Source of the DNA: Methylophaga frappieri
GTDB lineage: Bacteria > Pseudomonadota > Gammaproteobacteria > Nitrosococcales > Methylophagaceae
NCBI RefSeq assembly: GCF_000260965.1
Contig: NC_017856.1
Coordinates: 1,530,001-1,562,000, forward strand
Direction: 5' to 3'
Length of the DNA stretch: 32,000 nt
The notes beneath the pieces are model-generated. The model did no database searches. It was not told where the DNA came from and was given only the letters and a program-made list of their open reading frames with translations. Shown in pieces: positions 8,015-30,826 of this stretch; the stretch's first letter is position 1; each line of letters starts with the position of its first letter. Made by a program: the position numbers and the translations under genes.

Positions 8015-8570
8015 ACAACGATCGTTACCAGTCCTCGTGCTCGGGCTGGTCATGAACTCCTCCGTATTGGCTGAGCTGGCGGTGATTTATGACAGTGGTG
8101 AGACCCGGCCCTTGGCGCCGTTACTCAGCCCACTTTTGTTGAAGAATACTCAATCGACCGCCCCGGCTGAATCGAACAACCAGAATCTATCTTCAAAGTC
8201 CTTGCTCGGTCCGGCGACTCTCAGCAATTTATTGCCCATACGGTCACCCGGATTGGCGGTTGGCGATACCGCCGATAGCCAACTGAATCCCGAAGCCCTG
8301 GCGCGTTTGGCGCAAGGGAATCCACGCCCCTTCTTTCTCATCGGCTCGGATGCGTTGTCATTGCAATGGCTGGCGACTCACCACGACACTCTCAAAGACC
8401 TGGGTGCGGTGGGCATGTTGGTACAAGCCGATACCGAGGCGGATGTTCGACGGGTTGCTGAAGTGGCGCAGGACTTATCCATCACTCTGGGGTCCGGGAG
8501 TGATCTGGCCGCCGCATTGGGTATTCAACATTACCCGGTATTGATTACCCGTGATGGCATCCGGCAATGA
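8001..8570 (+). CDS. Secreted ICE protein (TIGR03765-type)
   Basis: The TTG at 8001 lies 6 nt after a perfect AGGAGG (7989-7994). This start gives the signal peptide MRIRKQRSLPVLVLGLVMNSSVLA. It overlaps the SLT gene by 14 nt. Confidence 0.6.
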   Translation: MRIRKQRSLPVLVLGLVMNSSVLAELAVIYDSGETRPLAPLLSPLLLKNTQSTAPAESNNQNLSSKSLLGPATLSNLLPIRSPGLAVGDTADSQLNPEALARLAQGNPRPFFLIGSDALSLQWLATHHDTLKDLGAVGMLVQADTEADVRRVAEVAQDLSITLGSGSDLAAALGIQHYPVLITRDGIRQ

Positions 8571-10696
8571 GCTCGCATCCGATGGAAGCGCTGTTGCGGC
8601 CTCCCGTGGAGTTGTGGTCCACCTGTACGGCGTTTGCGGCGGGTACACTGGCCTGGCTCGCCCCCTGGGCCTTGATGATGCCACCGGGTATCGCAATGGC
8701 CACCAGCCTGACCTTTTTCGGTTTTGGCTTGTGGCGGAGCCGTCAAGCATGGCGTGTATTGCGCTACCAGCATCACATGAAGCGGCTGCCGGATTACCAA
8801 GTGCGGGCCAACCAGATTCCCGTCAGTCGCCATAAGCTGTTTTTGGGCAAAGGCTTTCGCTGGAGCCAGCAACACACTCAGCGTCTGCGCGATACCCTGA
8901 AGCCCGAGGTTCAACGTTACGTTCAGCCGGGCACGCTTTACCAGTGGGCGCGACAAAAGGAAGTTGCCTGGGAATCGATTCCAGTCCTGTCTTTGCTGAC
9001 CAAAGCTCTGCGTAGTCGCAGCCGTTGGAACCCGCTGGCGCCATTACCGGCCGTCGGCGGTAAGCCCGCCCTGCACGCGGTTGAACCGCAAGAGCAGCCA
9101 GTGTGGATGGATCTGGGTGAACGGGTCGGGCACACGCTGGTGTTGGGCACCACGCGCGTCGGTAAGACACGCCTGGCGGAACTGCTGATTACCCAGGACA
9201 TCCGCCGGGGTGATGTCGTCATTGTCTTCGATCCGAAAGGGGATGCCGATCTGTTGCGTCGCATCTACGCCGAGGCAAAGCGCGCCGGTCGGCTGGACGA
9301 TTTTTATCTGTTCCATCTCGGTTTTCCGGAACTGTCGGCGCGTTACAACGCCATCGGGAACTTCTCCCGCATCACCGAGGTCGCGACTCGCATCGCCAAT
9401 CAGCTGCCCAACGAGGGCAACTCAGCTGCCTTCAAGGAGTTCGCCTGGCGCTTCGTGAATATCATTGCGCGCGCCTTGGTGGCCCTGAAACGCCGGCCGG
9501 ACTACCAGCAGATCCGTCGCTACATCAACGACATTGAGCCCTTGTTTGTGGAATACGCCGGGCACTGCGCCGGTGTGGCCGACATCGAAGCCTGGCCGTC
9601 TCTGGTTGAAGCGCGCGCGGCGGATATCAAAGAGCGCAATTTACCCAATGCCCTGCGTGGCCGGTCGATGGAAGCCATCGCCTGCATGCGCTTGCTGCAG
9701 GAGAAGGCCATTTATGACCCTGTCCTGGACGGGCTGATTTCCGCGTTCAAATACGATAAGACTTATTTCGACAAGATCGTCAGCTCTGTCGGCCCGTTGA
9801 TGGAAAAGCTGACCACCGGCACCATCGCCGGGTTGATCTCACCGGATTACCAGGACGAGCAGGATGCGAGGCCGATCTTTGAATGGATGGATGTGGTGCG
9901 CCGCAAGGGTATCGTGTATGTGGGATTGGATGCGCTCACCGATACCACGGTCGCCAGTGCAGTGGGCAATTCCATGTTTGCTGATTTGGTGTCTGTGGCA
10001 GGGCATATCTACAAGCACGGCGTCGCGGCCAATGGCGCTGATGCGTCCGAATCAGAACGTCAGCGGCATTCGACCCCCACCATCTCTATGCATGCGGATG
10101 AGTTCAACGAGTTGATCGGTGATGAATTCGTGCCGCTGTTGAACAAGGCGGGCGGGGCAGGCTTTCAGGTCACGGCCTACACCCAGACCTGGTCGGACGT
10201 CGAAGCGCGTATCGGTAGTCGGGCCAAAGCGGGGCAGGTGGCCGGTAACTTCAACACTATGCTGATGCTACGAGTGAAGGAGTTGGATACTGCCGCCATG
10301 CTGACCGAGCAGTTACCGCGGGTTGAAGTCTTCACCCTGATGAGTGTCTCTGGCGTCGATGATTCGTCGGATCCCGGTTCCGGGGTCGACTTCAAATCCC
10401 GCAACGAAGACCGGATCAGTGTCTCGGAAGTACCGATGCTAACTGCCGCCGATATGGTCACGCTGCCCAAAGGGCAGGCCTTCGCCCTGCTGGAAGGCGG
10501 CCAGCTGTGGAAAATCCGTATCCCATTGCCGGACGACCGCGAGGATACGGCCATGCCCGACGACTTCGAGGCAATAGCCGAGGCCATGCGCCGCAGCTAT
10601 ATCACCAACGATCACTGGTACCGGGTCACCGACCACTGGTGGCACGCAGTCTCCGAGGCCGCGATCCGACCCTCAGACGCCGGTGAGCAGGCTTGA
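8567..10696 (+). CDS. traD: Type IV coupling protein TraD
   Basis: N-terminal transmembrane helices, Walker A GTTRVGKT and Walker B-like ISMHADEF. The length is 709 aa. The start overlaps the upstream stop (ATGA). Confidence 0.9.
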   Translation: MSSHPMEALLRPPVELWSTCTAFAAGTLAWLAPWALMMPPGIAMATSLTFFGFGLWRSRQAWRVLRYQHHMKRLPDYQVRANQIPVSRHKLFLGKGFRWSQQHTQRLRDTLKPEVQRYVQPGTLYQWARQKEVAWESIPVLSLLTKALRSRSRWNPLAPLPAVGGKPALHAVEPQEQPVWMDLGERVGHTLVLGTTRVGKTRLAELLITQDIRRGDVVIVFDPKGDADLLRRIYAEAKRAGRLDDFYLFHLGFPELSARYNAIGNFSRITEVATRIANQLPNEGNSAAFKEFAWRFVNIIARALVALKRRPDYQQIRRYINDIEPLFVEYAGHCAGVADIEAWPSLVEARAADIKERNLPNALRGRSMEAIACMRLLQEKAIYDPVLDGLISAFKYDKTYFDKIVSSVGPLMEKLTTGTIAGLISPDYQDEQDARPIFEWMDVVRRKGIVYVGLDALTDTTVASAVGNSMFADLVSVAGHIYKHGVAANGADASESERQRHSTPTISMHADEFNELIGDEFVPLLNKAGGAGFQVTAYTQTWSDVEARIGSRAKAGQVAGNFNTMLMLRVKELDTAAMLTEQLPRVEVFTLMSVSGVDDSSDPGSGVDFKSRNEDRISVSEVPMLTAADMVTLPKGQAFALLEGGQLWKIRIPLPDDREDTAMPDDFEAIAEAMRRSYITNDHWYRVTDHWWHAVSEAAIRPSDAGEQA

Positions 10697-11430
10697 GCAC
10701 GGTGGAGCCCCGTGATCCCCGACGGCCGGTTGCACAGCCGGGTACCGTATCCCGGTTGCTGACGGGTATCGCCCAGTGCCTCAAGTGGCTGTTTCTCTCC
10801 CTGTTGTTCTCCATTCTGGTGGAGTGGGTCGGCATGGTGTTCTGGTGGGAAGAGCAAGGACTTGGCCACAGTCGACAGATGCTGGTGAACGAATTGCAGT
10901 TCCTCGGCACCGACTTTCATCGCAGCTGGTTAACCGCCCAGCCGATGGTGTTCGCCAGTAACCTCTCGGATCGCGTCTACCAGTTTGCCTTCGAGTGGAC
11001 GGGGCTCGTGGATCTGATTCATTGGATCACACCGGTACCGTCTGCGGAGGAGACTGGTCTGAGACCGGTACTGCACCGATTTTACCGGCCCGTCGCTGAC
11101 TATGTGCTGGCGGGTATGCAAATCACCCAGGTCTTTGCGGTACGACTCGCCATCCTGACGCTGGCCACGCCGGTATTTGGACTGTTCACCCTGGTAGCGC
11201 TGGTGGATGGGCTGGTGCGGCGCGACCTGCGGCGTTGGGGCGGCGGCAGGGAAAGTTCTTTCGTGTACCACTACGCCAAGAAAGCCGCCATACCGCTGAT
11301 CATCATGGCCTGGGTGTTGTACCTGGCGCTGCCGTTCAGTTTGCACCCGTCCTGGATCATCCTGCCATTCGCGCTGGCCTTTGCCTTCGCCGTCACCATC
11401 ACAGCCAGTACCTTTAAAAAGTACCTTTAA
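10693..11430 (+). CDS. ICE integral membrane protein (TIGR03747-type)
   Basis: Several hydrophobic helices. The start overlaps the traD stop. Its position after traD matches remembered synteny. Confidence 0.65.
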   Translation: MSTVEPRDPRRPVAQPGTVSRLLTGIAQCLKWLFLSLLFSILVEWVGMVFWWEEQGLGHSRQMLVNELQFLGTDFHRSWLTAQPMVFASNLSDRVYQFAFEWTGLVDLIHWITPVPSAEETGLRPVLHRFYRPVADYVLAGMQITQVFAVRLAILTLATPVFGLFTLVALVDGLVRRDLRRWGGGRESSFVYHYAKKAAIPLIIMAWVLYLALPFSLHPSWIILPFALAFAFAVTITASTFKKYL

Positions 11431-11449: not shown

Positions 11450-11504
11450 TTGACTGTACCGTTACAGTCTGCTAGGCTGCATTTAAGCACTGTAAAGATA
11501 CAGT
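11450..11504 (+). promoter_or_regulatory. Candidate sigma70 promoter with two palindromic operators for the Xre/RES operon
   Basis: TTGACT (11450-11455), a 17-nt spacer, then TAGGCT (11473-11478). Palindrome 1 is GACTGTA-CCGT-TACAGTC (11452-11469). Palindrome 2 is ACTGTA-AAGA-TACAGT (11489-11504). An AGGAGG lies 6 nt before the ATG at 11529. Confidence 0.55.
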
Positions 11505-11528
11505 CTGAATGCTGTTTAGGAGGCAATC

Positions 11529-11930
11529 ATGATCGCTCAAGCCGAACAACTGCTGCAACGTGGTTCCAGTGTCACCAGGTCACTGCTGCCGGCGATTTTC
11601 ACTATCTTCAGCCAGTGGCGCCTCACTGGTGCCCAGCAGATGACGCTACTGGGGCTCAGCAATGAGAAGACCCTCTATAACTGGAAGAGCCAACCCGAGA
11701 AGGCCAAGCTGACGCGAGACCTGTTGGAACGGGCCAGCTACATTTTGGGGATCTACAAGTCCCTGCAAATCCTGTTGCCTGATCAGGTGCTGGCTGACCA
11801 GTGGCTGGCCACACCGAACGACAACCCGCTGTTCAATGGCACGGCGCCGCTGGACCGGATACTCGCTGGTCAGGTGGTCGACCTGGCCGTGGTCAGGGAT
11901 TTTCTTGATGCGGAGCGGGGTGGCTGGTGA
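11529..11930 (+). CDS. Xre/MbcA/ParS-type antitoxin (DUF2384 toxin-binding domain)
   Basis: The C-terminal sequence WLATPNDNPLFNGTAPLDRILAGQVVDLAVVRDFLDAERGG is typical of DUF2384. The gene overlaps the RES gene by 4 nt. Confidence 0.85.
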   Translation: MIAQAEQLLQRGSSVTRSLLPAIFTIFSQWRLTGAQQMTLLGLSNEKTLYNWKSQPEKAKLTRDLLERASYILGIYKSLQILLPDQVLADQWLATPNDNPLFNGTAPLDRILAGQVVDLAVVRDFLDAERGGW

Positions 11931-12619
11931 TTGCAATCGATACGCTACCCAGCAGCGAGGTCAATGAACCGGTCTATCGGGTCATACTGTCGCGCTACCC
12001 GCAGATCCACCTGTTCGAACGCGTCTCCAGCCCACAGGATTGGGAGGTGCTCTACGCCGTCGAGTCCCTGACGAATCCCAGGCTACGGGATGAAGTTGGT
12101 GATATTCGCCTGGTGCCGCCGGAAGACCGGGTCTACGGTGACGGTGCATCCTGGATAATGGCGGCCTTTACCCACCCGCCAGTGGATGGCCGAGGTGGTC
12201 GCTTCAACCGGGACTTCGGCATCTATTACTGCGCTGCCGATGAAGCAGTCGCCATCGCCGAATCGTCCTACCACCGGGCGCGATTTCTGCGTGAGTCCCG
12301 AATCGACAAGACCACCCAGGAAATGCGCGTGATTCGCGCACAGTTGGGGCCGACAACTCTCCACGATGTCCGTCACCTGCTTGAAGACGCCATCTACGAC
12401 CTTGATCATTATGACGAAGCCCAGCAGCTCGGTTACGCGTTACGTGATGCTAAAAGTTACGGTGTTCACTACCAAAGCGTGAGAGCAAAAGGGGAGTGCT
12501 ACGGAGTGATGCGTGCCCGATCGCTGTCCGATGCGATTCACTGGCGTTATCTGAGCTACCACTATGACCAGGGGGCGATAGTCAACGTCGAATCTCTCGA
12601 TGGCAGTGGCAGGAGGTGA
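11927..12619 (+). CDS. RES-domain toxin (NAD+-targeting family)
   Basis: R-E-S signature: GGRFNRDFGIYYCAADEAVAIAES and YGVHYQSVRAKG. The 230-aa length fits the family. Confidence 0.9.
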   Translation: MIAIDTLPSSEVNEPVYRVILSRYPQIHLFERVSSPQDWEVLYAVESLTNPRLRDEVGDIRLVPPEDRVYGDGASWIMAAFTHPPVDGRGGRFNRDFGIYYCAADEAVAIAESSYHRARFLRESRIDKTTQEMRVIRAQLGPTTLHDVRHLLEDAIYDLDHYDEAQQLGYALRDAKSYGVHYQSVRAKGECYGVMRARSLSDAIHWRYLSYHYDQGAIVNVESLDGSGRR

Positions 12620-12624
12620 TGGCA

Positions 12625-13215
12625 ATGTATAAAGAGCTGCTGTGGATCTTCACACAACTCCCGGACGATTACATCGTCCTCGATACCGAAACCACCGGTC
12701 TCCCTGACGAAAACGGCCCGCCGGATATCGTGACGATTGGCTTCACCGTGGTGAGAAATCGAGAGATAGCGGAATCCGTCGAGTTTAAAACACGGCCACA
12801 AAAACACATTTCAGAAGAAGCGCAGTCGATACACGGTATTACCAATGAACAGGCTGCAGGATTTGATGCCTTTGATTCCCAATGGAACCAGATTGCCGAC
12901 TACCTGAAAGATCAACTCATCGTCATCCACAACGCCAGTTTTGACTGGCCGATCCTGCTGGATCACGTCGCCCGATACGGTTTATCAATGCCGCCAATTC
13001 AAGGTGTGTTCTGCAGTCAGAAAGCCGCCATTCCGTGGGCACAGGCAGCGAATTTGCCGTGCAGCCACAGAGGTCCATCGTTAGACGCGTTGACGAAAGC
13101 GGTTGGCGTTGAAGATCTCAGAGCAAAGATTGGTGGAGCTCATGGGGCGGAAATTGATAGCAGGCAGACGGCTCAAGTGACAGAGGTGATGAGACGTAAT
13201 GGAAATGCAAATTAG
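12625..13215 (+). CDS. DEDDh 3'-5' exonuclease (DnaQ/epsilon-like, stand-alone)
   Basis: ExoI VLDTETTGL, ExoII VIHNASFDWPIL and ExoIII HGAEIDSRQT. An AGGAGG at 12611-12616 lies inside the end of the RES gene. Candidate starts are GTG 12616, ATG 12619 and ATG 12625. Confidence 0.85.
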   Translation: MYKELLWIFTQLPDDYIVLDTETTGLPDENGPPDIVTIGFTVVRNREIAESVEFKTRPQKHISEEAQSIHGITNEQAAGFDAFDSQWNQIADYLKDQLIVIHNASFDWPILLDHVARYGLSMPPIQGVFCSQKAAIPWAQAANLPCSHRGPSLDALTKAVGVEDLRAKIGGAHGAEIDSRQTAQVTEVMRRNGNAN

Positions 13216-13309
13216 GTTTTAACCTTGAGTCATGATGAGCGAAATTGCGCAATGAATTGCCACCAGTTTTCTAGCCAAAGAGTGGCTTATCAATGGAGGA
13301 TAAGTGTAG

Positions 13310-14656
13310 ATGCTTGATCAGATGTTCACTGCGGAAAATTTCCGACGTATCTATGATAGTGAAAATCGGAAGGGTCTTGATCTCGCAGGTCTCTATTTTC
13401 CCGATCTCGAACCCCATACTCTCGCTGTTCGCAACAAAGTTCAGGAAATTCGTGCGTATCGATCAAGAGAATCCAGCATCAAGGCTGAAGATTTCAAGCA
13501 GAATCTAGACGCCCTAAAGGCTGAGCTCGTCCATTTGAAAGCCACAAAGTCCGCTGCGATTGACGAGAAAATGGATGATATTAGCCTCAAGGTACTGCAG
13601 CCTAGCTTCAAAATCGAACTTAGCCAAAAGACTGGACCCAAGGGAAAGCTTGTTTATTGTATTGATTCGAAGCCAGAGACCTTTTTTGTCATCAAACAGC
13701 TTCAGCGTAATATCTACCGGATTTATGGCGTCAAACAGGCCAATCGCCACGATCTCGTATGCCAAGTGCGTGATACCGTCGGGACAAAATTTCCTTTTGA
13801 GATGGTTCGGACAGACATCTCAACGTTCTACGAAAGTATTGACAGAAAGAGGCTCATCAAGAAACTTGATAAGGATCAGCTCCTAAGCCCTTCCTCAAAA
13901 AAGTTCATTAATCAGGTATTGGATTCCTACGGGGTTCTATCCGGAACATCCACCGGTATCCCTAGGGGTGTAGGCATCAGCGCTTATTTAGCTGAACTCT
14001 ACTTGCGTCCAGTTGACAAGGCAATTCGCGCCATTCCAGGGCTTATTCTTTACTGCCGTTTTGTCGATGACGTAGTGGCGATCTTTGCGCGTCCTCCCAC
14101 TGGCACGGATCTTGGCTCATATAAAGATCACGTCATCAAAGTTTTTGCAGAAAATGGTCTGACACACAATCTGGACAAGACTTATGAATTTGATCTGAAG
14201 AGGCAGGAGCCGAAGAAGTTCGAGTACCTTGGTTATCGATTTCTGGTCCAGCCTGGCCAGTGCCAAATTAAAGCCAGTTCTGCGAAAATTCTGAAATATA
14301 AGAACCGCATGAACGCTGCATTTGAAGACTACTGGAAAAGCTGCTCCACTGACTCCAGGCGGGCTTATCGTGTTCTTGTATCGCGAATAAAGTTTCTAAC
14401 AGGTAACACTCGCCTTTCGAATAGCAAGTCACGGGCGGCAACGGGGATATATTACAACAATTCCATTGCAAACGATCTCTCTAGTTTCGAGATGCTGGAT
14501 AAACTAATGAAGAAACGTGTGGCGAAGATTAAGCGTGCAAGTCTTCGGAAGCGGCTCAAAACTTACAAGTTCACGGAGGGTTTTAAGACTCGGCGTTTTC
14601 ATAATTTCAATTCGCGTGAGCTGCAAACGATAGTAAAGGCTTGGAAATATGAGTAA
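13310..14656 (+). CDS. Reverse transcriptase 1 (448 aa; UG3/Drt3a-like by architecture, unverified)
   Basis: RT palm motifs: VRTDISTFYESID (motif A Asp), GIPRGVGISAYLAELYLRPVD, YCRFVDDVVAIF (motif C FVDD, nt 14060-14071), GLTHNLDKTYEF and FEYLGYRF. GGAGGA lies 9 nt before the ATG. Confidence 0.9.
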   Translation: MLDQMFTAENFRRIYDSENRKGLDLAGLYFPDLEPHTLAVRNKVQEIRAYRSRESSIKAEDFKQNLDALKAELVHLKATKSAAIDEKMDDISLKVLQPSFKIELSQKTGPKGKLVYCIDSKPETFFVIKQLQRNIYRIYGVKQANRHDLVCQVRDTVGTKFPFEMVRTDISTFYESIDRKRLIKKLDKDQLLSPSSKKFINQVLDSYGVLSGTSTGIPRGVGISAYLAELYLRPVDKAIRAIPGLILYCRFVDDVVAIFARPPTGTDLGSYKDHVIKVFAENGLTHNLDKTYEFDLKRQEPKKFEYLGYRFLVQPGQCQIKASSAKILKYKNRMNAAFEDYWKSCSTDSRRAYRVLVSRIKFLTGNTRLSNSKSRAATGIYYNNSIANDLSSFEMLDKLMKKRVAKIKRASLRKRLKTYKFTEGFKTRRFHNFNSRELQTIVKAWKYE

Positions 14657-16718
14657 ACGGCGTGCCACTCTCACCCATAGAAAGCAGCGATCCGTTCTAA
14701 CGGATATGCTGCCGTTTGAGGTGCCTCCGACCTTCTCCAATCGAGGTTTTTACCGATTTTTAAGAGATCACGATATAGAGATTGATGATGGATGTATTCG
14801 CTGGGTTTCAGATACCAATGATCTCGATGCAACAATGCAACTGTTATTCGGCATCGAAGACAAGGGCTCGATTGAAACCGAAATTTTAAGCGAGTGGGGG
14901 AGGACGAAGACGCGTAGATATGTTCGTTTGAAAAAATGCAATATGACAACAATACCTTTCAATTTCCAGATTTCTCACAATCTCGACGGTCGAACCCTAA
15001 GTGTCGTGCATCCGCGCAATCAGGTTGCGGTCGCGAGTTTCTATGCGGCGCAAAGCGCGCTAATTGTTTACTACACTTCTTTAAGTGACTTCTCGATTCG
15101 GCGGCCGGTTTCGGTATCTCGCCATGCATATTTCAATGACAGATTGCATCAGGAAAAGCTGGATTCCGTCGCCGGTGTGGAAGAAGAAGACAAGGAATAT
15201 GAACAGCTTGGCTCTTATTTTGTTTACAAAAAGTACCGCAATATTCACCAGTTCTTTGAGTCGTACAAATATCATCGATGTGAGAAAAAATATGACGCGA
15301 TGGTCCAAATAGACGTAAATAAATGCTTTGATAGTATTTATACTCACTCTCTACCTTGGGCTGTGCTCGGAAAGTCGCAGACAAAGTTCAGTTTATCGGA
15401 ATCCAAACATACGTTCGGTGGATTGTTCGATACATTGATGCAGAACCTCAATCACAATGAAACCAACGGGATTGTGATCGGGCCAGAATTCTCCCGAATT
15501 TTTTCAGAGATTATCCTGCAGGCGGTCGATGTCGAGCTTTCGAAGCGTCTGTCCGAAGACTCTAATCTTACGCATAAAGTTGATTATGAGATTTTTCGTT
15601 ACGTTGATGACTACTTTGTTTTTTACAATGAGGAGTCTACACAGTTAAAAATTATAGAAACGCTGCAAGCTTTTTTGAAGGTCAATAAGTTAAGTATTAA
15701 TACCTCCAAGATTAAGCACTATCAAAAGCCCATCATCACCGAAATCACGATTGCCAAGAATCGCATATCAACGCTATTGAATAACGAAATCAATCCGGCC
15801 ACTGAAGAGGTTGTTGTAGAGGACCCTGAGGAGGCAGGGGCTATAAAGCTCGCATGTCCCGTAAATTCAAATCGGCTCATTATTCGCTTCAAGACGGTAA
15901 TTAAAGAAACGTCTGTCACTTACGGCGAGCTACTGAATTACACTCTCGCTATTACCGAAAACAAAATCGAAAAACTTTTTCAATCCTATCTGGCGTGTGA
16001 CAAAACAATACATGACCAGAAGCAGCTACTTAAAACGCTTTTGGCGGTTATGGAGTTCGCATTTTTTGTGTATTCTGCAAACCCGCGCGTAAATCATACG
16101 ATTCGGCTTTGCCGGATGATTACAGCCTCAATTGACTTTCTCTGCGTTAATTCACTTCCTTATGAATTGAAGCACTTGCTGTTCAAATACGTCCATGACA
16201 ATGTATTGCAACAGCTGGAAAAGAACGCGATGAACGCTCATTGTGAAGTCGAAAGCTTATATCTTCTCATTTCTTTGTCGCAAATCGGGCGAGAGTATTG
16301 GCTACCTGAGTCAGTCTTGCTGCGGCATTTTCTCATTACGGAGGAAGAGGCCACGCACAAGTATCAGCGTGTCGGATTCATGAGTCATTTTTCCATTACG
16401 GTGCTGTTGTCTTACATAAAGGATAAAGTCCGCTATGCGAAACTTAAGGCCTTCACTGAAGAGCACATCATTCGTAAGCTCGAGTATATGAGAGCGCATT
16501 GCCACAATGATGCGGAAGCCATGATCCTTCTATTGGATTTGATTGTATGCCCCTACATTAGCACCGCTACTAAGGACGCGATAGGCCAGTTTTTCGGGCT
16601 GGATGCCACAACACTTACAGCTATTCAGAAGACCAATGACCACTGGTTTACGGCATGGGGGGGCAAATTCGATCTCGGTAAAGAGCTAGACGCCAAGCGC
16701 AGTCGTGAAGTATATTAG
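14649..16718 (+). CDS. Reverse transcriptase 2 (689 aa; UG8/Drt3b-like by architecture, unverified)
   Basis: RT motifs: VQIDVNKCFDSIYTHSL, NGIVIGPEFSRIFSEIILQAVD, IFRYVDDYFVFY (YVDD, nt 15600-15611) and KLSINTSKIKHY. There is an N-terminal extension of about 215 aa and a C-terminal helical region of about 320 aa. The start overlaps the RT1 stop (ATGAGTAA). Confidence 0.9.
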   Translation: MSKRRATLTHRKQRSVLTDMLPFEVPPTFSNRGFYRFLRDHDIEIDDGCIRWVSDTNDLDATMQLLFGIEDKGSIETEILSEWGRTKTRRYVRLKKCNMTTIPFNFQISHNLDGRTLSVVHPRNQVAVASFYAAQSALIVYYTSLSDFSIRRPVSVSRHAYFNDRLHQEKLDSVAGVEEEDKEYEQLGSYFVYKKYRNIHQFFESYKYHRCEKKYDAMVQIDVNKCFDSIYTHSLPWAVLGKSQTKFSLSESKHTFGGLFDTLMQNLNHNETNGIVIGPEFSRIFSEIILQAVDVELSKRLSEDSNLTHKVDYEIFRYVDDYFVFYNEESTQLKIIETLQAFLKVNKLSINTSKIKHYQKPIITEITIAKNRISTLLNNEINPATEEVVVEDPEEAGAIKLACPVNSNRLIIRFKTVIKETSVTYGELLNYTLAITENKIEKLFQSYLACDKTIHDQKQLLKTLLAVMEFAFFVYSANPRVNHTIRLCRMITASIDFLCVNSLPYELKHLLFKYVHDNVLQQLEKNAMNAHCEVESLYLLISLSQIGREYWLPESVLLRHFLITEEEATHKYQRVGFMSHFSITVLLSYIKDKVRYAKLKAFTEEHIIRKLEYMRAHCHNDAEAMILLLDLIVCPYISTATKDAIGQFFGLDATTLTAIQKTNDHWFTAWGGKFDLGKELDAKRSREVY

Positions 16719-17000
16719 GCGTGGCGCACCGCTCTACCCTTAATGGCTGTTGGCAGCCCACACACAAGCGCCTTCACGGCTCCTATATCAATTGGGGGTT
16801 GGGTAACCAGGCGGCAGGAGCGGGTCGTCTCCCCCCCCCCTAACTATCGCGGTATCACCTCAGTCTCTTGCTCACATTCATATTCAGAATCTCGAGGATA
16901 GTTTGCTCAAGTAATATCCCTCCTGGTAGCAACTGTTGAATGACGATCTAGAATTAAAAACCACCCCACCCACCGAATAGATTTCCCCTCGTCCCCCATC
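16719..17000 (+). ncRNA. Candidate non-coding RNA associated with the RT pair (hypothesis)
   Basis: This stretch contains no ORF. It holds a hairpin GGCTG-TTGG-CAGCC (16745-16758) followed directly by (CA)4 (16759-16766). G5/G3 tracts (16794-16803) face a C10 run (16831-16840). There is a bulged hairpin GAGGATA...TATCC(C)TC (16894-16922) and C-rich tracts CCACCCCACCCACC (16961-16974) and CCCCTCGTCCCCC (16985-16997). Strand and ends are unknown. Confidence 0.3.
16831..16840. repeat. C10 homopolymer
   Basis: Ten consecutive C residues read directly from the sequence. Confidence 0.95.
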
Positions 17001-17049
17001 ATTAATTCTCGCACTATGCCCCGTAACAACTCACGGGAGCAGCAGTGCC

Positions 17050-17352
17050 ATGAAACGCCATCTCTGGCTACCTTCTTTTCTGATTATAGGCTTGGTTGTC
17101 ACGCCGGCGGCTTTTGCCAATGCAGGCGCCGAGCGCGAGGCGCTCGCCAAAGTCATCCATGAGCTCAATGCCCTCGAGTCATTAATCAAGCGTGCCGAGG
17201 CCAACGCCGAGCAGGATTCCCGTATCCGATTTCGCTATGACTGGCTGCGTCAGGATCTGAAGCAGATCAAGGATGGCATCCATTCACACATCGACTCTCC
17301 CCGTGCTCAGCCTCGCTCATTTCCGCCATTGCGCGGCGATTACCGTCGATAG
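17050..17352 (+). CDS. RAQPRD-family ICE protein
   Basis: Signal peptide MKRHLWLPSFLIIGLVVTPAAFA and the C-terminal signature SPRAQPRSFPPLRGDY. Confidence 0.85.
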   Translation: MKRHLWLPSFLIIGLVVTPAAFANAGAEREALAKVIHELNALESLIKRAEANAEQDSRIRFRYDWLRQDLKQIKDGIHSHIDSPRAQPRSFPPLRGDYRR

Positions 17353-17360
17353 GTCTCGTC

Positions 17361-17591
17361 ATGAACGCCGCACAACAAACAGCCTTTCAAGCCGGTTCCG
17401 GTATTACCCCGGCCACCATGCTGACGGCCATCGCGTCGATGGTGTTGGTGTTGGCGTTTGTCTGGGTGATTTGGGTAGCGTTAGGAACTTTTCGGGCCTG
17501 GCAGGAAGGGCAGGCCACGCTCTTTGATCTGACCTGGAGCACCCTGCGGGCAAGCATTGTGTTGATGGTTTTGGGTTTCTATTTGCGGTGA
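17361..17591 (+). CDS. Small ICE membrane protein (TIGR03758-type)
   Basis: 76 aa with two hydrophobic helices. Its position after the RAQPRD gene matches remembered synteny. Confidence 0.6.
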   Translation: MNAAQQTAFQAGSGITPATMLTAIASMVLVLAFVWVIWVALGTFRAWQEGQATLFDLTWSTLRASIVLMVLGFYLR

Positions 17592-17702
17592 GTCGATCGA
17601 GTTGAGACCGAGAAAGTCCGGTAAGGGCAAACGGCGATGCAGCGCAGTGGGATGCGGGGATGGTTCCCCTTTTTATCAGCGTTACAGAAGAGGACATTTG
17701 TT

Positions 17703-18080
17703 ATGGACACATCAAATACAAAAAGCGGTTTCAACAAGAAATCTGTTGCCATCCGCAAGTCGCTATCGGCAGCGGTCGCGGGGCTATTACCACTGCCGCT
17801 CTGGGCGGCGTTGCCGACGCCGGTTGCGCCGAGTACGGCGCCGCCAGCGGGTGACTGGATCGGCTTGATTCAGGGCTACATCAAAGACGGCGGCTTGGTA
17901 CTCGGACTGGCCATCGCTGTACTGGGTTTTCTCTGGATCGCCTACCTAGGCTTCGCAAAATTCAATGAAGCTCGCCAGGGCAAGGCAGAGTGGGCTGAAG
18001 TCGGTGTGCTGGGGATTGTCGGCGCGATCGTGCTGATCTTTGCCAGCTATCTGCTCACAGAAGCGGCCGGCGTTATTTAA
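17703..18080 (+). CDS. ICE membrane protein, pilin-like (TIGR03745-type)
   Basis: The ATG at 17703 follows GAAGAGGA. It has a signal-like segment AVAGLLPLPLWAALP and two C-terminal transmembrane helices. The track start at 17637 is unlikely. Confidence 0.6.
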   Translation: MDTSNTKSGFNKKSVAIRKSLSAAVAGLLPLPLWAALPTPVAPSTAPPAGDWIGLIQGYIKDGGLVLGLAIAVLGFLWIAYLGFAKFNEARQGKAEWAEVGVLGIVGAIVLIFASYLLTEAAGVI

Positions 18081-18118
18081 CACCCGACGTCAATATCAAC
18101 TTGCCGTAGGAGACGCGA

Positions 18119-18499
18119 ATGTCCAACGACCATGAAATTCTGGCGGATCGGCTCAATGCCGAGCCCGCCATTTTTAAGGGTTGCTCATCTTCTGAGCTGG
18201 GCATGATTGTGGGGTTAGCCATTGTGATATGGCTGCCCCTCAGTCTGTTGCTGGCCTGGTTGCTGGGTGCCATCACCATGGGTTTTGGTATTGCCGGTGT
18301 CGGTGTGGTGGCCACTGTAGTCACTCTGGCGACGCTCTTTCAGCGTATCAAACGCGGCCGGCCTGAAGGCTATTACCAGCAATGGCTGCGTATTCGTCTG
18401 CAGACGATGGGGCTGTATCGCACGCCCTGGGTACTACGCAGCGGTTCCTGGGATATAGGGAGAACGCACTATGCGCCGCTACCGACTCGAAATCGATAA
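18119..18499 (+). CDS. Conjugative transfer region membrane protein (TIGR03750-type)
   Basis: An AGGAGA ribosome-binding site, two adjacent transmembrane helices and a 126-aa length. Confidence 0.6.
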   Translation: MSNDHEILADRLNAEPAIFKGCSSSELGMIVGLAIVIWLPLSLLLAWLLGAITMGFGIAGVGVVATVVTLATLFQRIKRGRPEGYYQQWLRIRLQTMGLYRTPWVLRSGSWDIGRTHYAPLPTRNR

Positions 18500-19148
18500 C
18501 GTGCGGTCCCATTTGCGCTCCCTGTGGGTCGTGATTGGCTTGCAAGGGATGATCATTCTCGCGCTCTGGATCGGCTGGAGCCAGGCACCCAAGCAGCTGC
18601 GTGTTTATGTGCCACCTGATCTGCGGTCGGGTGCTGTTCTGGCGGCCGAAGAAGTGCCTCCGGCCAATGTCTATGCCTTTGCGTTCTACATTTTCCAGCA
18701 GCTCAATCGCTGGCCAGAAAACGGCGCAACGGATTACGGCAGCGCAATTTTTCGGCTCTCGCCCTACCTGACACCGCGCTACCGCAATGACCTGATCGCC
18801 GATATGGAACTCAAAGCCCGGCGCGGCGAGTTGGCCTACCGGGTGCGCGGTGTCCATGAAGTGCCGGGGCACGGCTACGAGGAGCGCCGCGTCGATGTGT
18901 TATCGCCCGATGTCTGGATTGTCTGGCTGGATCTGGATCTGCTGGAGTCCGTGAAAGGCATGACCGTCAAGCAAACCACGATTCGCTACCCGATTCGGGT
19001 GGTGCGTCAGGCTATCGATCCGGAAACCAATCCCTGGGGCCTGGCACTCGATGGGTACTCTAGCGACGGCCCGCGTCGATTAACCGAAGCCGAGTTGGCT
19101 GAACCCAGCGTGACTGGCGCCATTACCAATAAGGAATCCTCCCAATGA
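18471..19148 (+). CDS. ICE protein (TIGR03746-type), N-terminal membrane anchor
   Basis: GGGAGAA lies 8 nt before the ATG. There is one transmembrane helix (LWVVIGLQGMIILALWIGW). It overlaps the upstream gene by 29 nt. Confidence 0.6.
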   Translation: MRRYRLEIDNVRSHLRSLWVVIGLQGMIILALWIGWSQAPKQLRVYVPPDLRSGAVLAAEEVPPANVYAFAFYIFQQLNRWPENGATDYGSAIFRLSPYLTPRYRNDLIADMELKARRGELAYRVRGVHEVPGHGYEERRVDVLSPDVWIVWLDLDLLESVKGMTVKQTTIRYPIRVVRQAIDPETNPWGLALDGYSSDGPRRLTEAELAEPSVTGAITNKESSQ

Positions 19149-19966
19149 ATTCTCGTGATTTCTTTACGCCATTGAGATGGATCGCTTTGCTCGGTCTCTG
19201 TTTCCCGCTGCTGTCCTTTGCACAAGTCGATGATGCGGCTCCGAACGTTCCAGAACGCGTTGTCTGGAACAAAGCGCCCATCGCAATTCCGTTGGTCGTT
19301 GGTGAAGAGCGCCAGGTGCATTTTCCGGATTCGGTGAGCATCGGCCTGCCGCAGTCACTGACACCGTTGCTGCGCAGCCAAAGCATCAACGGCACTCTAT
19401 ACCTGTTGGCCAGGCAAGCCTTTGAGCCCACCCGTGTCATGGTGCGCTCGGAAACCGACGGCCCAATCTACGTCCTCGATATTTCAGCAGCGCCAGGCGG
19501 AGCAGGCGGTCGATCATTGCCGGATGTGCAGGTACTGCTGAAATCACCACAGGATTTGTCGGAAGATGCTGGTGCCGATCAGTCAACTTCGGACAAGCAA
19601 TCACAGTCTTTGGGTTATGCCGCTTTAACCCGGTATGCCGCGCAACAACTCTATGCGCCAACACGACTGATCCCCCGGCAGCCGGGCGTGGTTGCCGTAC
19701 CCGTAAACCCCGAACCGGTCGATCTTGTAGTGGGCGGCAAGATCGAAGCCGTGCCGGTTGCTGCCTGGAAGGCGGGTTTGCGTTACGTCACTGCCGTCAA
19801 GCTGATCAATCGTACCCAAAGCCCCGTCGTGCTGGATCCACGCGAACTGCGCGGGTCATGGCTGGCGGCAACCTTTCAGCACAATCGCCTGTTACCCGCT
19901 GGCAGTGAGGCCGATACCACAGCCGTCTATCTGGTGTCGGATCGGCGCTTTGATGCGGCCTTTTGA
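19145..19966 (+). CDS. Secreted ICE protein (TIGR03749-type)
   Basis: ATGA start/stop overlap with the upstream gene, and the signal peptide LRWIALLGLCFPLLSFA. Confidence 0.6.
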   Translation: MNSRDFFTPLRWIALLGLCFPLLSFAQVDDAAPNVPERVVWNKAPIAIPLVVGEERQVHFPDSVSIGLPQSLTPLLRSQSINGTLYLLARQAFEPTRVMVRSETDGPIYVLDISAAPGGAGGRSLPDVQVLLKSPQDLSEDAGADQSTSDKQSQSLGYAALTRYAAQQLYAPTRLIPRQPGVVAVPVNPEPVDLVVGGKIEAVPVAAWKAGLRYVTAVKLINRTQSPVVLDPRELRGSWLAATFQHNRLLPAGSEADTTAVYLVSDRRFDAAF

Positions 19967-21823: not shown

Positions 21824-21832
21824 GAACGCTTG

Positions 21833-24556
21833 ATGCCAAAACATAAACCTAACCTTCCCGAGGGTGCGCCCTTAACCACTGCCGCGGTCAAACAACACTA
21901 TACCCGCCCGCCGTCGTTTACCGATTTGCTGCCTTGGATGGAATACATTCCCGAGAGTAGAGCTTTTCTGTTAGAGGATGGGGTCAGCCTCGGCGCGCTG
22001 TTCGAGGTGCAGCCGGTCGGTTGTGAGGCAAGGACGCCAGCCTTTATGACCCAGCTGCGTGACGCCATTCAAACGGCAATCAACGAGGCCATTCCCGAGC
22101 GCGACGATGCGCCTTGGGTATTGCAGATCTATGTGCAGGACGAGCCCAGGCTAACTCAATTCAATGAGTCGTTGGCCCGTTATCCGTCGCCGGCGGTTCG
22201 TGCTTCGGATTACTCTCAACATTACCAGTCGGTGATGTCGAAGCACCTGCAAGCGATTTCCCGACCGGGTGGGTTGTTTGACGATACCACCGTCACCGGT
22301 TCGCGTTGGCAGGGGCAGCAACGGCGGATCCGCGTTGTGCTCTACCGCCGTTTGAAAAGCAACGGCAAAATGCCACCCGCTGTTGAAGTGGAGGAGGCGC
22401 TCAATGACGTGGCCACCAAATGGATCGCCTCACTGACCTCTGCCGGAATCAACGCCCAACGGGTCAATGGTCAGGCGTTTTATCATTGGTTGCTGAGCTG
22501 GTTCAATCCCAATCCACCGCTGGCAGACGGTAATCCAGAATCAATGCTCCAGTTGGCACCCTATCCGGGCGATGACAATTTACCCTTCGGCTATGACTTT
22601 GCCGAACAGCTGACCCTGTCGATGCCCCGTTCCGACGAGACAACAGCGACTTGGCTCTTCGATAACTTGCCTCATACGGTGGTGACCATTCAAAGTCTGC
22701 GGCGGGCGCCAGATATAGGGCACTTCACGGCGGAACGCCAGGCCGGGGATCAGGTGTATTCGCTGTTCGATCGTTTACCCGAGCACACCATCATGGCGAT
22801 AACTCTCACGCTCAAACCGCAAGACACTACCCGCAATCACATTGCCCAGATCAAGCGTGCTTCGGTAGGCGATTCCGCTGAGGCGTCGATCACCCGGGAA
22901 GATGCGGAACACGTGGAGCGGGAAATGGCGCAGGGGAACAAGCTGTATCCCGTGAGCATGGCCTTCTATGTGCGCGGAGATAATCAAAAGGCGCTACGGA
23001 ACAATTTGAATCGTCTCCACGCGCTGCTTTTGCCCAATGGTCTGCAGCCCATTGCCCAGGAAGCTGACCTGCTGTCGCTCGACAGTTACATCCGTAACCT
23101 GCCCATGGCCTACGACGCCGACCTGGACAAATCCCGCCGACGCTCGCGGCTGATCTTCTCTCGGCATATTGCCAATATGGTACCGTTCTACGGCCGTTCC
23201 CGTGGCACCGGTCATCCCGGCCTGGTGTTCTACAACCGGGGCGCCGAACCGCTGGTCTTCGACCCGTTGCACAGGGATGACCGTAAGAAAAACGCCCACA
23301 TGCTGATCCTTGGGCCGACGGGGGCGGGCAAGTCGGCACTGTTGGTATATCTGCTGCAGCAGATGATGGCACGGCATCGGCCACGGTTTTTTATTATCGA
23401 GGCAGGGGCTTCGTTTTCGTTGCTGGGGCAGCATTTTGCGCATCACGGTCTGTCAGTGAACCAGATCACCCTGAACCCTAATGTCGATGTTAGCCTGCCG
23501 CCTTTCGCCGATGCGCTTCGACTTCTGGATCGGCGTCACGCGTTTAATCCACTCGATGTCGATGTATCCACAATGGAGGAGACGTTAGACGAAGATGATG
23601 AGATCGAGGAGGAAGGGGGCGGTCGCGATATCCTCGGCGAAATGGAGATCGCTGCACGTATCATGATTACCGGCGGCGATGAACGCGAAGACGCGCGATT
23701 GACCCGGGCCGACCGACTGCTGATCCGCAATGCCATATTCCTTGCCGCAAAAACCGTGAAAGAGACCAGTCGAACCCAGGTGATTACCCAGGATGTGGTC
23801 AACGCCTTCCAGACCATCGCCACCAACAGGGAATTGCCCGAACACCGGCGTAATCGAGCCCTGGAAATGGGGGATGGTATGGCGTTGTTCTGTTCGGGCC
23901 TGGCGGGCCACTTCTTCAACCGGCCGGGACAGTCCTGGCCTGAAGCCGATGTCACTATCCTCGAAATGGGCATGTTGGCCAGAGAGGGCTACGAGGATCA
24001 GCTCACCGTCGCCTACCTGTCCATGATGAGCCATATCAATGACCTGGTGGAACGTCATCAACATGACGATCGGCCCACGCTGGTGGTGACTGACGAAGGC
24101 CACATCATTACCACCAATCCCTTGCTGGCGCGCTACGTGGTCAAGATCACCAAAATGTGGCGCAAGCTCGGTGCCTGGTTCTGGATCGCCACCCAGAATC
24201 TGGAAGACTTTCCGGATGCCAGCCGCAAGATGCTCAACATGATGGAGTGGTGGCTGTGCCTGGTCATGCCGAAAGAAGAGGTGGAGCAGATCGCCCGCTT
24301 CAAGGATCTCAATGACGAACAGCGCAACCTCCTGTTGTCTGCCCGCAAGGAGCCGGGAAAATACGTGGAAGGAGTCGTCCTGGCCGACAAGGTCGAAGCG
24401 CTGTTCCGCAACGTACCGCCAGCCTTATCGCTCGCCCTGGCCATGACCGAAAAGCATGAGAAGGCTGAACGTGCAGCGATTATGCGTGAGAAGAACTGCT
24501 CGGAGCTGGAGGCGGTTTACGAGATCGCCAAGCGTATCGAGCAGTCTCGTGCGTAG
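21833..24556 (+). CDS. Conjugative transfer ATPase (VirB4/TraC-like, TIGR03744-type)
   Basis: Walker A GPTGAGKS and Walker B TLVVTDEGH. The length is about 907 aa. AGGAA lies 6 nt before the ATG at 21833. Confidence 0.9.
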   Translation: MPKHKPNLPEGAPLTTAAVKQHYTRPPSFTDLLPWMEYIPESRAFLLEDGVSLGALFEVQPVGCEARTPAFMTQLRDAIQTAINEAIPERDDAPWVLQIYVQDEPRLTQFNESLARYPSPAVRASDYSQHYQSVMSKHLQAISRPGGLFDDTTVTGSRWQGQQRRIRVVLYRRLKSNGKMPPAVEVEEALNDVATKWIASLTSAGINAQRVNGQAFYHWLLSWFNPNPPLADGNPESMLQLAPYPGDDNLPFGYDFAEQLTLSMPRSDETTATWLFDNLPHTVVTIQSLRRAPDIGHFTAERQAGDQVYSLFDRLPEHTIMAITLTLKPQDTTRNHIAQIKRASVGDSAEASITREDAEHVEREMAQGNKLYPVSMAFYVRGDNQKALRNNLNRLHALLLPNGLQPIAQEADLLSLDSYIRNLPMAYDADLDKSRRRSRLIFSRHIANMVPFYGRSRGTGHPGLVFYNRGAEPLVFDPLHRDDRKKNAHMLILGPTGAGKSALLVYLLQQMMARHRPRFFIIEAGASFSLLGQHFAHHGLSVNQITLNPNVDVSLPPFADALRLLDRRHAFNPLDVDVSTMEETLDEDDEIEEEGGGRDILGEMEIAARIMITGGDEREDARLTRADRLLIRNAIFLAAKTVKETSRTQVITQDVVNAFQTIATNRELPEHRRNRALEMGDGMALFCSGLAGHFFNRPGQSWPEADVTILEMGMLAREGYEDQLTVAYLSMMSHINDLVERHQHDDRPTLVVTDEGHIITTNPLLARYVVKITKMWRKLGAWFWIATQNLEDFPDASRKMLNMMEWWLCLVMPKEEVEQIARFKDLNDEQRNLLLSARKEPGKYVEGVVLADKVEALFRNVPPALSLALAMTEKHEKAERAAIMREKNCSELEAVYEIAKRIEQSRA

Positions 24557-24570
24557 CAGTTTTACTGATC

Positions 24571-25398
24571 TCAGGGGTGTTTCACGACTCCACGGCAGGC
24601 CGGATAGGTTGCGCATCCCCAAAATTGATTGCCGGCGTTTTGTCCCTTTCTGGCCGTTCTTGGCACCATCGTACCGCCACACTTTGGGCACTGTTTTTGA
24701 CTTTGGGGCGTCGTTGACGCTGTGACTGACGGCACGACTGCGGGGGCGGCTGGCGGTGAGGGAGCCTTCTTCTGGCGCAAATGCTTGACGTGCTGTCGGT
24801 TGGTGGTAAACCCCCGCTGTAATCTCAGCTGTTCGATTTGTGCCGTCATAGTATCCACGGCGGCCTGGCTGAGGATCACTTCGCGCCGCGCTTTGATATA
24901 CCGGATATACCCACCGGCATAAACCACATTCTCGGGCAACTCCGTCTTGAACGTCGAATCACCGACAAACACCACCAGCGAGTGAATCGCGGAAGCCGGA
25001 ATATTCAGCAGGGTTTCCAGGGTTTTGACGTGTTTATAGTTCTGGTGCAGTGGGTTCTGAAATTTATGGGTGTGTTTGTAGATTTTCTGGGTCCAGGTTT
25101 TCTGGTTGGCCGAGCCGAATATCCAGCCCTTCATATTTTTGGTTTCAATTACGAATACGCCGTAGCGCGACACAATGATGTGGTCGATCTGTGTGGTGCC
25201 ATCATCGGTTTGTAATGTCACATCCTTGATCAGGCGGTATTCGTCCTTTGGAAGAAACAGTCGTGCGGCCGTATTCACCAGAAACTCACCGGTAATGCCT
25301 TTGAACCAGGGGGACTTGAGAACACCTGCCAGGATGGCGAGAGGTATGAGGTACCACAGCGCGCCGTAGACCTGTTGGATGATGGGGCTGAAATCCAT
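24571..25398 (-). CDS. NERD-domain protein with C-terminal topoisomerase-type zinc ribbon
   Basis: An N-terminal transmembrane helix, the NERD core DHIIVSRYGVFVIETKNMKGWIFG, and a C-terminal CPKCGGTMVPRT...FWGCATYPACRG motif. It is convergent with the ATPase gene, leaving a 14-nt gap. Confidence 0.85.
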   Translation of the reverse strand: MDFSPIIQQVYGALWYLIPLAILAGVLKSPWFKGITGEFLVNTAARLFLPKDEYRLIKDVTLQTDDGTTQIDHIIVSRYGVFVIETKNMKGWIFGSANQKTWTQKIYKHTHKFQNPLHQNYKHVKTLETLLNIPASAIHSLVVFVGDSTFKTELPENVVYAGGYIRYIKARREVILSQAAVDTMTAQIEQLRLQRGFTTNRQHVKHLRQKKAPSPPAAPAVVPSVTASTTPQSQKQCPKCGGTMVPRTARKGQNAGNQFWGCATYPACRGVVKHP

Positions 25399-30799: not shown

Positions 30800-30826
30800 C
30801 TAGGCCACTACGGCTTTTATTTGCAT

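Follow-up and report, generated by a model that had tools for sequence, protein, structure and literature searches.

A probable cognate non-coding RNA downstream of the DRT3 reverse transcriptase genes in an integrative and conjugative element of Methylophaga frappieri

The DRT3 gene pair and the gap behind it

A stretch of 32,000 nucleotides from Methylophaga frappieri (NCBI RefSeq assembly GCF_000260965.1, contig NC_017856.1, positions 1,530,001 to 1,562,000 of the forward strand), called the window throughout, was analyzed with regard to the gap at 16719-17049, which comprises the 331 nt from the stop codon of drt3b (16718) to the ATG at 17050. All positions given refer to the window. The surrounding genes are those of an integrative and conjugative element (ICE) with a GI-type type IV secretion system (T4SS). 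The two genes directly upstream of the gap encode the reverse transcriptases (RTs) Drt3a (UG3) and Drt3b (UG8), i.e. the RT pair of a defense-associated reverse transcriptase system of type 3 (DRT3). The original prediction had placed a cis-encoded structured RNA serving this RT pair in the gap. Directly 3' of the second RT gene such an element was indeed found, conserved and covarying, and a functional element had been picked correctly from the sequence alone. The genes and segments concerned are the following.

13310-14656, + strand: drt3a, UG3, Class 2 RT (PADLOC Drt3a, E 5.5e-121; Pfam RVT_1)
14649-16718, + strand: drt3b, UG8, Class 1 RT, 689 aa (PADLOC Drt3b, E 6.4e-199)
16721-16833, + strand: core of the probable DRT3 non-coding RNA (ncRNA), equal to the match of the covariance model R1, possibly continuing to the end of the C-run at 16840
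16831-16840, + strand: C10 run, head of a pyrimidine-rich tail after the last hairpin (P4), unconserved in sequence and variable in length
16841 to ~16911, no strand assigned: islet-specific spacer with no detectable function, holding the 5' half of a bulged hairpin
~16912-17049, + strand: ICE backbone, intergenic, upstream of the RAQPRD/T4SS operon, weakly conserved from ~16912 and strongly from 16953-16957

Both RT genes have the same orientation and overlap by 8 nt. Drt3a is 31% identical to the E. coli protein EcoDRT3a and matched chain A ('Drt3a') of the PDB entry 9z6y (E 3e-23), while its next-best PADLOC match was UG17 (E 4e-33). Drt3b has a match of 100% identity among Methylophaga frappieri proteins, shares 29% identity with EcoDRT3b and matched the PDB entries 26cz and 9z6y; a search for its homologues gave 3753 hits at E<=1e-20. 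The RT catalytic motifs are FVDD in Drt3a and YVDD in Drt3b. Furthermore, E24, R283 and the C-terminal Y689 of Drt3b align with E22 (gatekeeper), R241 (switch) and Y666 (priming) of EcoDRT3b. By homology, Drt3a would be the enzyme using an ncRNA template and Drt3b a protein-primed, protein-templated poly(dCdA) synthase.

The gap contains the elements listed below, whose positions in the original prediction were all correct when the sequence was read again.

16745-16758: hairpin GGCTG-TTGG-CAGCC
16759-16766: CA repeat CACACACA
16794-16798 and 16801-16803: tracts of five and three G (G5 and G3)
16831-16840: C10 run
16894-16922: bulged hairpin GAGGATA...TATCCCTC
16961-16974: first later C-rich block, CCACCCCACCCACC
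16985-16997: second later C-rich block, CCCCTCGTCCCCC

Considered singly, none of these elements went beyond chance. The CA repeat occurs once in the window versus 1.1 expected occurrences. The whole gap folded no better than shuffled sequences (z -0.29) and 16841-16955 folded worse than shuffles (z +1.55); the thermodynamic z-scores of the gap, the RNA core and the spacer were all uninformative. No Rfam match was obtained for the gap at E<=10 and none for the entire window at the gathering thresholds, and a search of a plasmid database with 16400-17400 gave no match. A sub-threshold Rfam match to RAGATH-32 at 12867-12930 on the - strand, inside the RNase_T gene, reached 20.3 bits versus a gathering threshold of 41.8 (E 0.22) and is most likely due to chance.

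The gap had also been described as the longest ORF-free one in its surroundings. Among the gaps separating + strand genes hereabouts it is the longest, but it does contain mechanically called open reading frames (ORFs) of 40-52 aa (16721-16843 with 40 aa, 16743-16901 with 52 aa, and 16907-17029). Its proposed compositional affiliation with the islet was not borne out, as the GC content of the whole gap is 0.535 versus 0.44-0.45 for drt3a and drt3b, with values of 0.62 for the ncRNA core and 0.53 for the last 97 nt, which belong to the ICE backbone. The listed elements are parts of three unrelated segments, and the clean separation of cargo RNA from spacer and ICE backbone within such a gap is of value for annotation. 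That the hairpin and the CA repeat are real is shown by their conservation and covariation beside drt3b in other genomes.

Conservation and structure of the element 3' of drt3b

Using a scan with one genome per species, 52 loci with Drt3b relatives of 38-87% identity were found in Alpha-, Beta- and Gammaproteobacteria, Acidobacteria and Verrucomicrobia. Sequence after the drt3b stop was available for 50 of these loci, and an alignment of 48 sequences was used for the structure tests. A conserved element of ~115 nt was present in all 50 loci with sequence 3' of drt3b, starting 5-7 nt past the stop. Within it, the stretch ACACACAAGC was invariant in 48/48 aligned loci, even where Drt3b was only 40-46% identical. 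Conservation stopped directly after P4. In the locus L001, with a Drt3b of 87% identity in another genomic context, the similarity to the window was lost beyond the C-rich tail.

A covariance model, R1, was trained on the 47 other loci, with the window left out, and searched with filters off. In the window a single match was obtained, at 16721-16833 and on the + strand only (118.3 bits, E 2.5e-25; next best 14 bits). It begins 3 nt after the drt3b stop, the same position as in 50/50 loci. The six ICE relatives bearing the islet were matched at 116-124 bits. The leader at 13216-13309, which had been offered as an alternative location for the RNA, can be set aside: no R1 match was found there, and just its last ~20-40 nt, the region of the ribosome-binding site, were kept upstream of drt3a elsewhere.

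The structure deduced from the alignment consists of the following parts.

16723-16727 (GGCGC) with 16768-16772 (GCGCC), + strand: P1, closing the template domain
16729-16734 (CCGCUC) with 16818-16823 (GAGCGG) in the P4 loop, + strand: pseudoknot
16745-16758, + strand: P2 hairpin GGCUG-UUGG-CAGCC (16745-16749 with 16754-16758), directly 5' of the template
16759-16767, + strand: C-ACACAC-AA, the very probable template, with ACACAC at 16760-16765
16775-16803, + strand: P3, composed of P3a (CAC 16775-16777 with GGG 16801-16803) and P3b (CUCCUA 16780-16785 with UGGGGG 16793-16798, conserved loop UAUCAAU)
16809-16830, + strand: P4 (AGGCGGC 16809-16815 with GUCGUCU 16824-16830; loop AGGAGCGG at 16816-16823)

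The P1 domain encloses a conserved single-stranded stretch, P2 and the template, while P3 and P4 lie 3' of P1. The invariant ACACACAAGC is unpaired in the consensus structure, where P2 precedes it and the 3' strand of P1 follows. RNAalifold yielded four helices with compensatory changes in 16/25 pairs, and this structure was extended by a fifth P1 pair and by the loop-loop helix of the pseudoknot, which was spotted by eye. Across the 48 sequences, 96.9% of the cells of the full structure were able to pair compared to 38-54% in slid controls, and 0/500 shuffles attained the observed measures. Changes on both sides were found in 19/32 pairs.

The individual helices were supported as follows. P1 was paired in 98.8% of the cells, and its pair 10/70 was C-G in 42 loci, A-U in 3, U-A in 1 and U-G in 2. 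For P2, 97.1% of the cells were paired with compensatory changes in 3 pairs, and for P3 92% with compensatory changes in 8/9 pairs. P4 reached 99.1%, with 4 compensatory pairs including pair 112/133 with 14 double changes. The pseudoknot taken alone was paired in 99.7% of the cells versus 33-61% when slid, showed double-sided changes in 3 pairs and was matched by 0/500 shuffles. The + strand was assigned because G-U occurs at many of the pairs in a high proportion of the loci; read from the other strand, these positions would turn into C-A mismatches.

Competing pairings were rejected. For the nested minimum free energy (MFE) fold, in which the 5' strand of P1 pairs with the 3' strand of P4 and the 3' strand of P1 with the 5' strand of P4, only 23% of the cells of the second helix were paired, with no covariation. 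A pairing of UACCC (16735-16739) with GGGUA (16801-16805) in place of P3a was paired in 86% of the cells and failed in exactly those 10 loci in which column 103 varies; in these 10 loci P3a covaries. The pairing of the G5 and G3 tracts with the C10 run, put forward in the original prediction, stayed at the level of shuffled sequences. In two registers 55-62% of the cells were paired, 142/500 and 292/500 shuffles reached these values, and slid registers did no worse. The effect is one of composition only, because the duplex energy with the own tail (-8.6 kcal/mol) was close to that with the tails of other loci (-7.7 kcal/mol). The two G tracts are in fact the 3' strands of P3, with CUCCUA and CAC upstream as their partners.

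Relation to known DRT3 RNAs and proposed mode of action

We are highly confident that 16721-16833 on the + strand, possibly extended to 16840, represents the cognate ncRNA of a DRT3 system carried as cargo by a Methylophaga ICE. By analogy to E. coli, its ACACAC is very probably the template which is copied by one of the RTs, Drt3a, into poly(TG) DNA. The DRT3 ncRNA of E. coli is located downstream of drt3b and associates with the RTs (Wang, Yoneyama et al. 2026, PMC13174585). Using mutation, sequencing and in vitro synthesis, its ACACAC loop was identified as the template for the poly(dTdG) made by Drt3a. Mutation of the loop abolished both products and defense, and reading through into the adjacent stem-loop led to truncated products (PMC13174585). 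EcoDRT3b synthesizes poly(dCdA) from Tyr666, with E22 and R241 acting as gates; the two strands anneal to double-stranded DNA (dsDNA), which is restrained by RecBCD (PMC13174585). The downstream RNA is a discrete RT-bound species and was needed for synthesis in vitro (PMC13174585). As summarized in PMC13314766, Deng et al. 2026 (Science) described a 6:6:6 complex of Drt3a, Drt3b and ncRNA and also assigned the poly(dTdG) template to ACACAC. The suggestion that the CA repeat beside the hairpin may be copied reiteratively gains support from this templating in EcoDRT3.

The RNA of the window resembles the EcoDRT3 ncRNA (ECOR12, 161 nt) in several respects. Both lie on the same strand as drt3b and just 3' of it, the E. 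coli RNA (L122) starting 15 nt past the stop. Both carry a single-stranded ACACAC that is preceded by a stem-loop and followed, a few nt further 3', by the second strand of a long-range closing helix, in E. coli according to a predicted single-sequence fold. Drt3a and Drt3b are the partners in both cases, with the key E, R and Y residues kept. However, neither sequence similarity nor similarity to the model was detected between the two RNAs, and the proteins are 29-31% identical. The template lies at ~nt 108-113 of 161 in EcoDRT3, after several internal stem-loops, and at ~nt 40-45 of ~113 in the window. EcoDRT3 has extra stem-loops inside the closing helix and is followed by a canonical terminator, whereas the window RNA carries P3, P4 and the pseudoknot beyond that helix, toward the 3' end, and lacks a following U-tract. 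The E. coli system resides on a P4-like satellite, the one of the window on an ICE. By sequence or structure similarity the window RNA was not a member of the EcoDRT3-type class ('subgroup 9', published covariance model). Judged from these comparisons it is an RNA of the same kind as the EcoDRT3 ncRNA, in a different structural class.

Structured RNAs in 20 groups had been predicted downstream of UG8 by Mestre et al. 2022 (PMC9226505), where groups 1-17 share an exposed 'CACACA'-like motif and are otherwise dissimilar in structure. The window RNA agrees with the description of these groups, which are found downstream of UG8 in Proteobacteria with group-specific structures and with the motif located at differing distances from the stop codon of the RT. 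Mestre et al. took the motif for a site of recognition or attachment (PMC9226505); our comparison with the groups was made by description. A different class with a shared motif is the pattern which they described. Since the type of RNA and the CACACA motif are already known, the locus adds little conceptually, and its RNA contributes a member in a class unlike the E. coli RNA.

A closer relative was found in E. coli itself. A distant-mode BLAST search with 16716-16845 against E. coli genomes hit only nine places, of which one, H1, was inspected and proved to be the Y5 locus (L053, NZ_CP013483.1). There, P1, ACCCUUAAU, the GGCUG-UUGG-CAGCC hairpin and CACACAC follow directly after drt3b, with a core of 36 nt at 94.6% identity and an R1 score of 29 bits. 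In contrast, the 3' half with P3 and P4 has diverged, and Drt3b and Drt3a of Y5 are 39% and 34% identical to those of the window. No annotated feature lies under the ncRNA match of Y5 (L053 4484-4600), and the same 36-nt core was seen in eight further complete E. coli genomes, likewise with no annotated feature at the site. The DRT3 genes of Y5 adjoin a Hachiman locus (HamA and helicase) and an integrase.

Beyond DRT3, a short loop template that is recopied with realignment of the product, giving tandem-repeat DNA, is a trait shared with DRT10 (UG17), DRT9 and telomerase RNA. The telomerase-like analogy was also drawn by the authors of PMC13174585 and PMC12632851. DRT9 and DRT10 differ in RT clade, template and product (poly-dA in DRT9), and their synthesis is protein-primed. 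For Drt3a no priming residue could be identified (PMC13174585). DRT3 in turn has a second, protein-templated RT. The likeness to telomerase RNA in closing helix, boundary hairpin, template and pseudoknot is an analogy. Two other kinds of RT-associated RNA were considered and rejected. The RTs are UG3 and UG8 and not of the retron type, with no Rfam match in the gap or, at the gathering thresholds, in the rest of the window, which speaks against a retron msr/msd. The ncRNAs of DRT2 and DRT9 lie upstream of a single UG2 or UG28 RT, whereas here the RNA is found downstream of a UG3 and UG8 pair and the leader remained unmatched.

Transferred from E. coli by homology, the mode of action would be as follows. 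Drt3a would bind the ncRNA, copy ACACAC into (dT-dG), halt at P2, realign the product on the repeat and copy it again, and such a telomerase-like cycle would yield poly(dTdG). Primed on its C-terminal tyrosine, Drt3b would produce poly(dCdA) in the absence of a nucleic-acid template. Both strands would then anneal to dsDNA, and accumulation of the dsDNA would trigger abortive infection. DRT3 is unusual in that one RT is RNA-templated and the other protein-templated, both jointly making poly(GT/AC) duplex DNA.

Transcription of the ncRNA may start from a promoter embedded in drt3b, for which a consensus scan gave the following candidate.

16687-16716, + strand: candidate sigma-70 promoter inside the last drt3b codons, TAGACG-18-TATATT (-35-like TAGACG at 16687-16692; -10-like TATATT at 16711-16716, in the Val-Tyr-stop codons)

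From this position a transcription start near G16723 can be inferred. TATAYT was found in 46/48 aligned loci and TTTAYT in the remaining two, and the box ends 7 nt before the first nucleotide of P1. The penultimate Val codon of drt3b (region 16710-16718) is GTA in 46/48 loci and GTT in the other two, versus 14% GTA at the other Val codons of drt3b. This bias beside the priming tyrosine points to a constraint at the nucleotide level and is consistent with a -10 box of the ncRNA.

Several observations weigh against our interpretation. R1, with filters off, left the EcoDRT3 ncRNA (L122) undetected (3.9 bits, E 3.3). As R1 misses this RNA and the proteins share 29-31% identity, templating is extrapolated over a large distance, resting mainly on the invariant ACACAC and on the gene pair. 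Folded as a single sequence, 16721-16833 was unremarkable (z -1.0), and its MFE structure is the nested alternative lacking the pseudoknot. The promoter is a consensus match only, and a 5' extension of the RNA explains the GTA bias equally well. We are aware of the fact that the 48 loci are phylogenetically non-independent, which affects the argument from GTA and promoter. Finally, no intrinsic terminator was found after P4 in the window.

The 3' side of the element gave rise to two further considerations. In the 48 loci the 12 nt after P4 consist of 43% C, 31% T and 8% G, while further on each base accounts for ~25%. A U-rich run after P4 was seen in ~8-10/48 loci and was absent from most, the window included. 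With the C-run the DRT3 module ends on its right side. Its length varies among relatives (C10 in the window, C9 in L100, TC5 in L054, L055 and L079, C7TC4 in L001), which could be due to slippage or to assembly error. That the variable C-run and the pyrimidine-rich, G-poor tail form a functional 3'-end determinant, be it a signal for Rho-dependent termination or a slippage-prone switch, is a long shot in our opinion. If it were true, the tract length (C10, C9 and C5 in near-identical ICEs) would tune or phase-vary the amount of correctly ended ncRNA and with it the activity of the potentially toxic DRT3, and the pyrimidine tail would replace the canonical terminator of EcoDRT3.

The element could also be nothing but a cis-acting 3' untranslated region (UTR) of drt3b, i.e. 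a terminator, stabilizer or translational element with no role in trans as template or scaffold. Its start 5 nt past the stop would agree with this, as would the intrinsic-terminator-like appearance of the loci with a U-rich run. But a terminator needs neither an invariant single-stranded ACACACAAGC of 10 nt nor four covarying helices and a pseudoknot, the U-run is missing after P4 in most loci including the window, and the E. coli counterpart is a discrete, RT-bound RNA required in vitro. Hence we judge a mere 3' UTR to be highly improbable and retain the interpretation as cognate ncRNA.

There is about an even chance that the element stands for a widespread proteobacterial class of DRT3 ncRNA whose structure has so far not been described in detail, with a telomerase-RNA-like core and a -10 box provided by the codons around the priming tyrosine. 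We ranked this as more probable than the C-run acting as a 3'-end determinant. In either case the locus provides a well-supported, transferable structure and covariance model for a DRT3 ncRNA class with a covarying pseudoknot and no Rfam match, which spans Alpha-, Beta- and Gammaproteobacteria, is also present in a few further phyla and is unlike the E. coli RNA studied so far. What stays constant across the classes is the vicinity of the template, namely ACACAC and, judging by the single-sequence fold for E. coli, the stem-loop 5' and the closing helix 3' of it, and this narrows what Drt3a must recognize.

Spacer, ICE backbone and cargo

The original prediction had treated all 331 nt as one candidate RNA, whereas only ~113-120 nt form the RNA, an approximately threefold over-extension. 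A single long ncRNA, with the C10 run paired to the G tracts and the later hairpin and C-rich blocks as further domains, would be in line with the presence of all these elements, with the lack of a predicted terminator within the gap and with the conservation of the whole gap in the six closest ICE relatives. The last point says little because these relatives are ~90-97% identical throughout. On the other hand, the similarity ends at the C-rich tail in L001 and in 49 other DRT3 loci, the G/C pairing did not exceed shuffle level, 16841-16955 folds worse than shuffles, and 16953-17049 is common to ~50 ICEs lacking DRT3. We give very little credence to the long version, and the shorter cognate ncRNA is kept.

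The right part of the gap was resolved by comparison with related ICEs. For this purpose 64 loci (L058-L121, metagenomic) were retrieved via the RAQPRD protein and compared by BLAST; the DRT3 islet was present in two of them (L079, L100). A 115-nt query covering 16841-16955 matched solely ICE copies with this DRT3 islet (L054-L057, L079, L100). In ~50 ICE loci without DRT3 the similarity has a sharp onset, which for most of them falls at 16950-16959 and for a few at 16912-16940. The bulged hairpin at 16894-16922, taken for an RNA element before, straddles the junction of spacer and backbone and gave no signal of its own. The two later C-rich blocks likewise dropped out as RNA elements, being ICE backbone upstream of the RAQPRD/T4SS operon. 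The first of them, AACCACCCCACCCACCGAATAGATTT, is nearly invariant and lies ~70-95 nt 5' of the RAQPRD start in >50 ICEs. Also conserved in the backbone alignment are CACTATGCCCCGTAACAAC..ACGGGAGCAGCAGTGCC-ATG, and a further conserved element within 16953-17049 is a hairpin, CCCGT...ACGGG, that overlaps the ribosome-binding site. A scan for the sigma-70 consensus found nothing in 16953-17049. We assigned ~16912-17049 to the backbone because it is shared with ~50 DRT3-less ICEs and its motifs align. Presumably the T4SS operon has its regulatory sequences and 5' UTR here, with 16953-17049 as a candidate operator or promoter.

Extending this role to the entire gap, such that the gap would be ICE regulatory DNA (promoter or operator of RAQPRD/T4SS) with an incidental hairpin and CA repeat, is scarcely credible. 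The strong conservation of 16953-17049 with its near-invariant motif 5' of RAQPRD in >50 ICEs fits, and CACACACA by itself should occur about once in each window by chance, but the regulatory reading holds just for the last ~100-140 nt, while the initial ~115 nt accompany drt3b into unrelated contexts and are missing in DRT3-less ICEs. A small protein encoded by the mechanical ORFs at 16743-16901 (52 aa) or 16721-16843 (40 aa) can practically be dismissed, as conservation stops at ~16840 within both ORFs, the alignment contains 1-nt and 2-nt indels, and the substitutions follow compensation across helices instead of third codon positions.

The further genes of the ICE in the window are as follows.

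8567-10696: coupling protein
10693-11430: DUF4400 protein
11529-12619: Xre/RES toxin-antitoxin pair
12616-13215, + strand: RNase_T-family (RNase_T/DnaQ-type 3'-5') exonuclease
17050-17352: RAQPRD protein
17637-19966: DUF2976, DUF3487, DUF2895 and DUF3438 proteins
21830-24556: TraC

RNase_T, RES and Xre, whose genes immediately precede drt3a, were rejected as regular partners of DRT3, since they accompany it only in the ICE relatives and in 0/52 genome loci. The identity of the window to L054-L057 is 76-78% for RNase_T, 93-94% for Drt3b and 96% for Xre. The RNase_T exonuclease might still serve as a DRT3 accessory, since host nucleases were reported to restrain the products of DRT3 and DRT10.

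The slot between DUF4400 and RAQPRD (~11500-16911 in the window) appears as a hotspot for cargo, often with defense-like genes. In other ICEs it is occupied by ThiF, JAB and DUF6527 (L058), ThiF and E2 (L104), another RT (L090), HD-CE and HATPase (L101), a TatD DNase (L083), a TPR protein (L072) or DUF4238 (L074). At 30500-32000 a second low-GC stretch (0.41-0.46) was observed, with an ORF of 332 aa at 30827-31825 on the - strand lacking a Pfam match. Just past traC, the - strand encodes at 24571-25398 a NERD nuclease carrying a zinc ribbon of the topoisomerase type. The gene coincides with a local GC dip to 0.49 and probably represents one more small insertion of cargo within the T4SS region.

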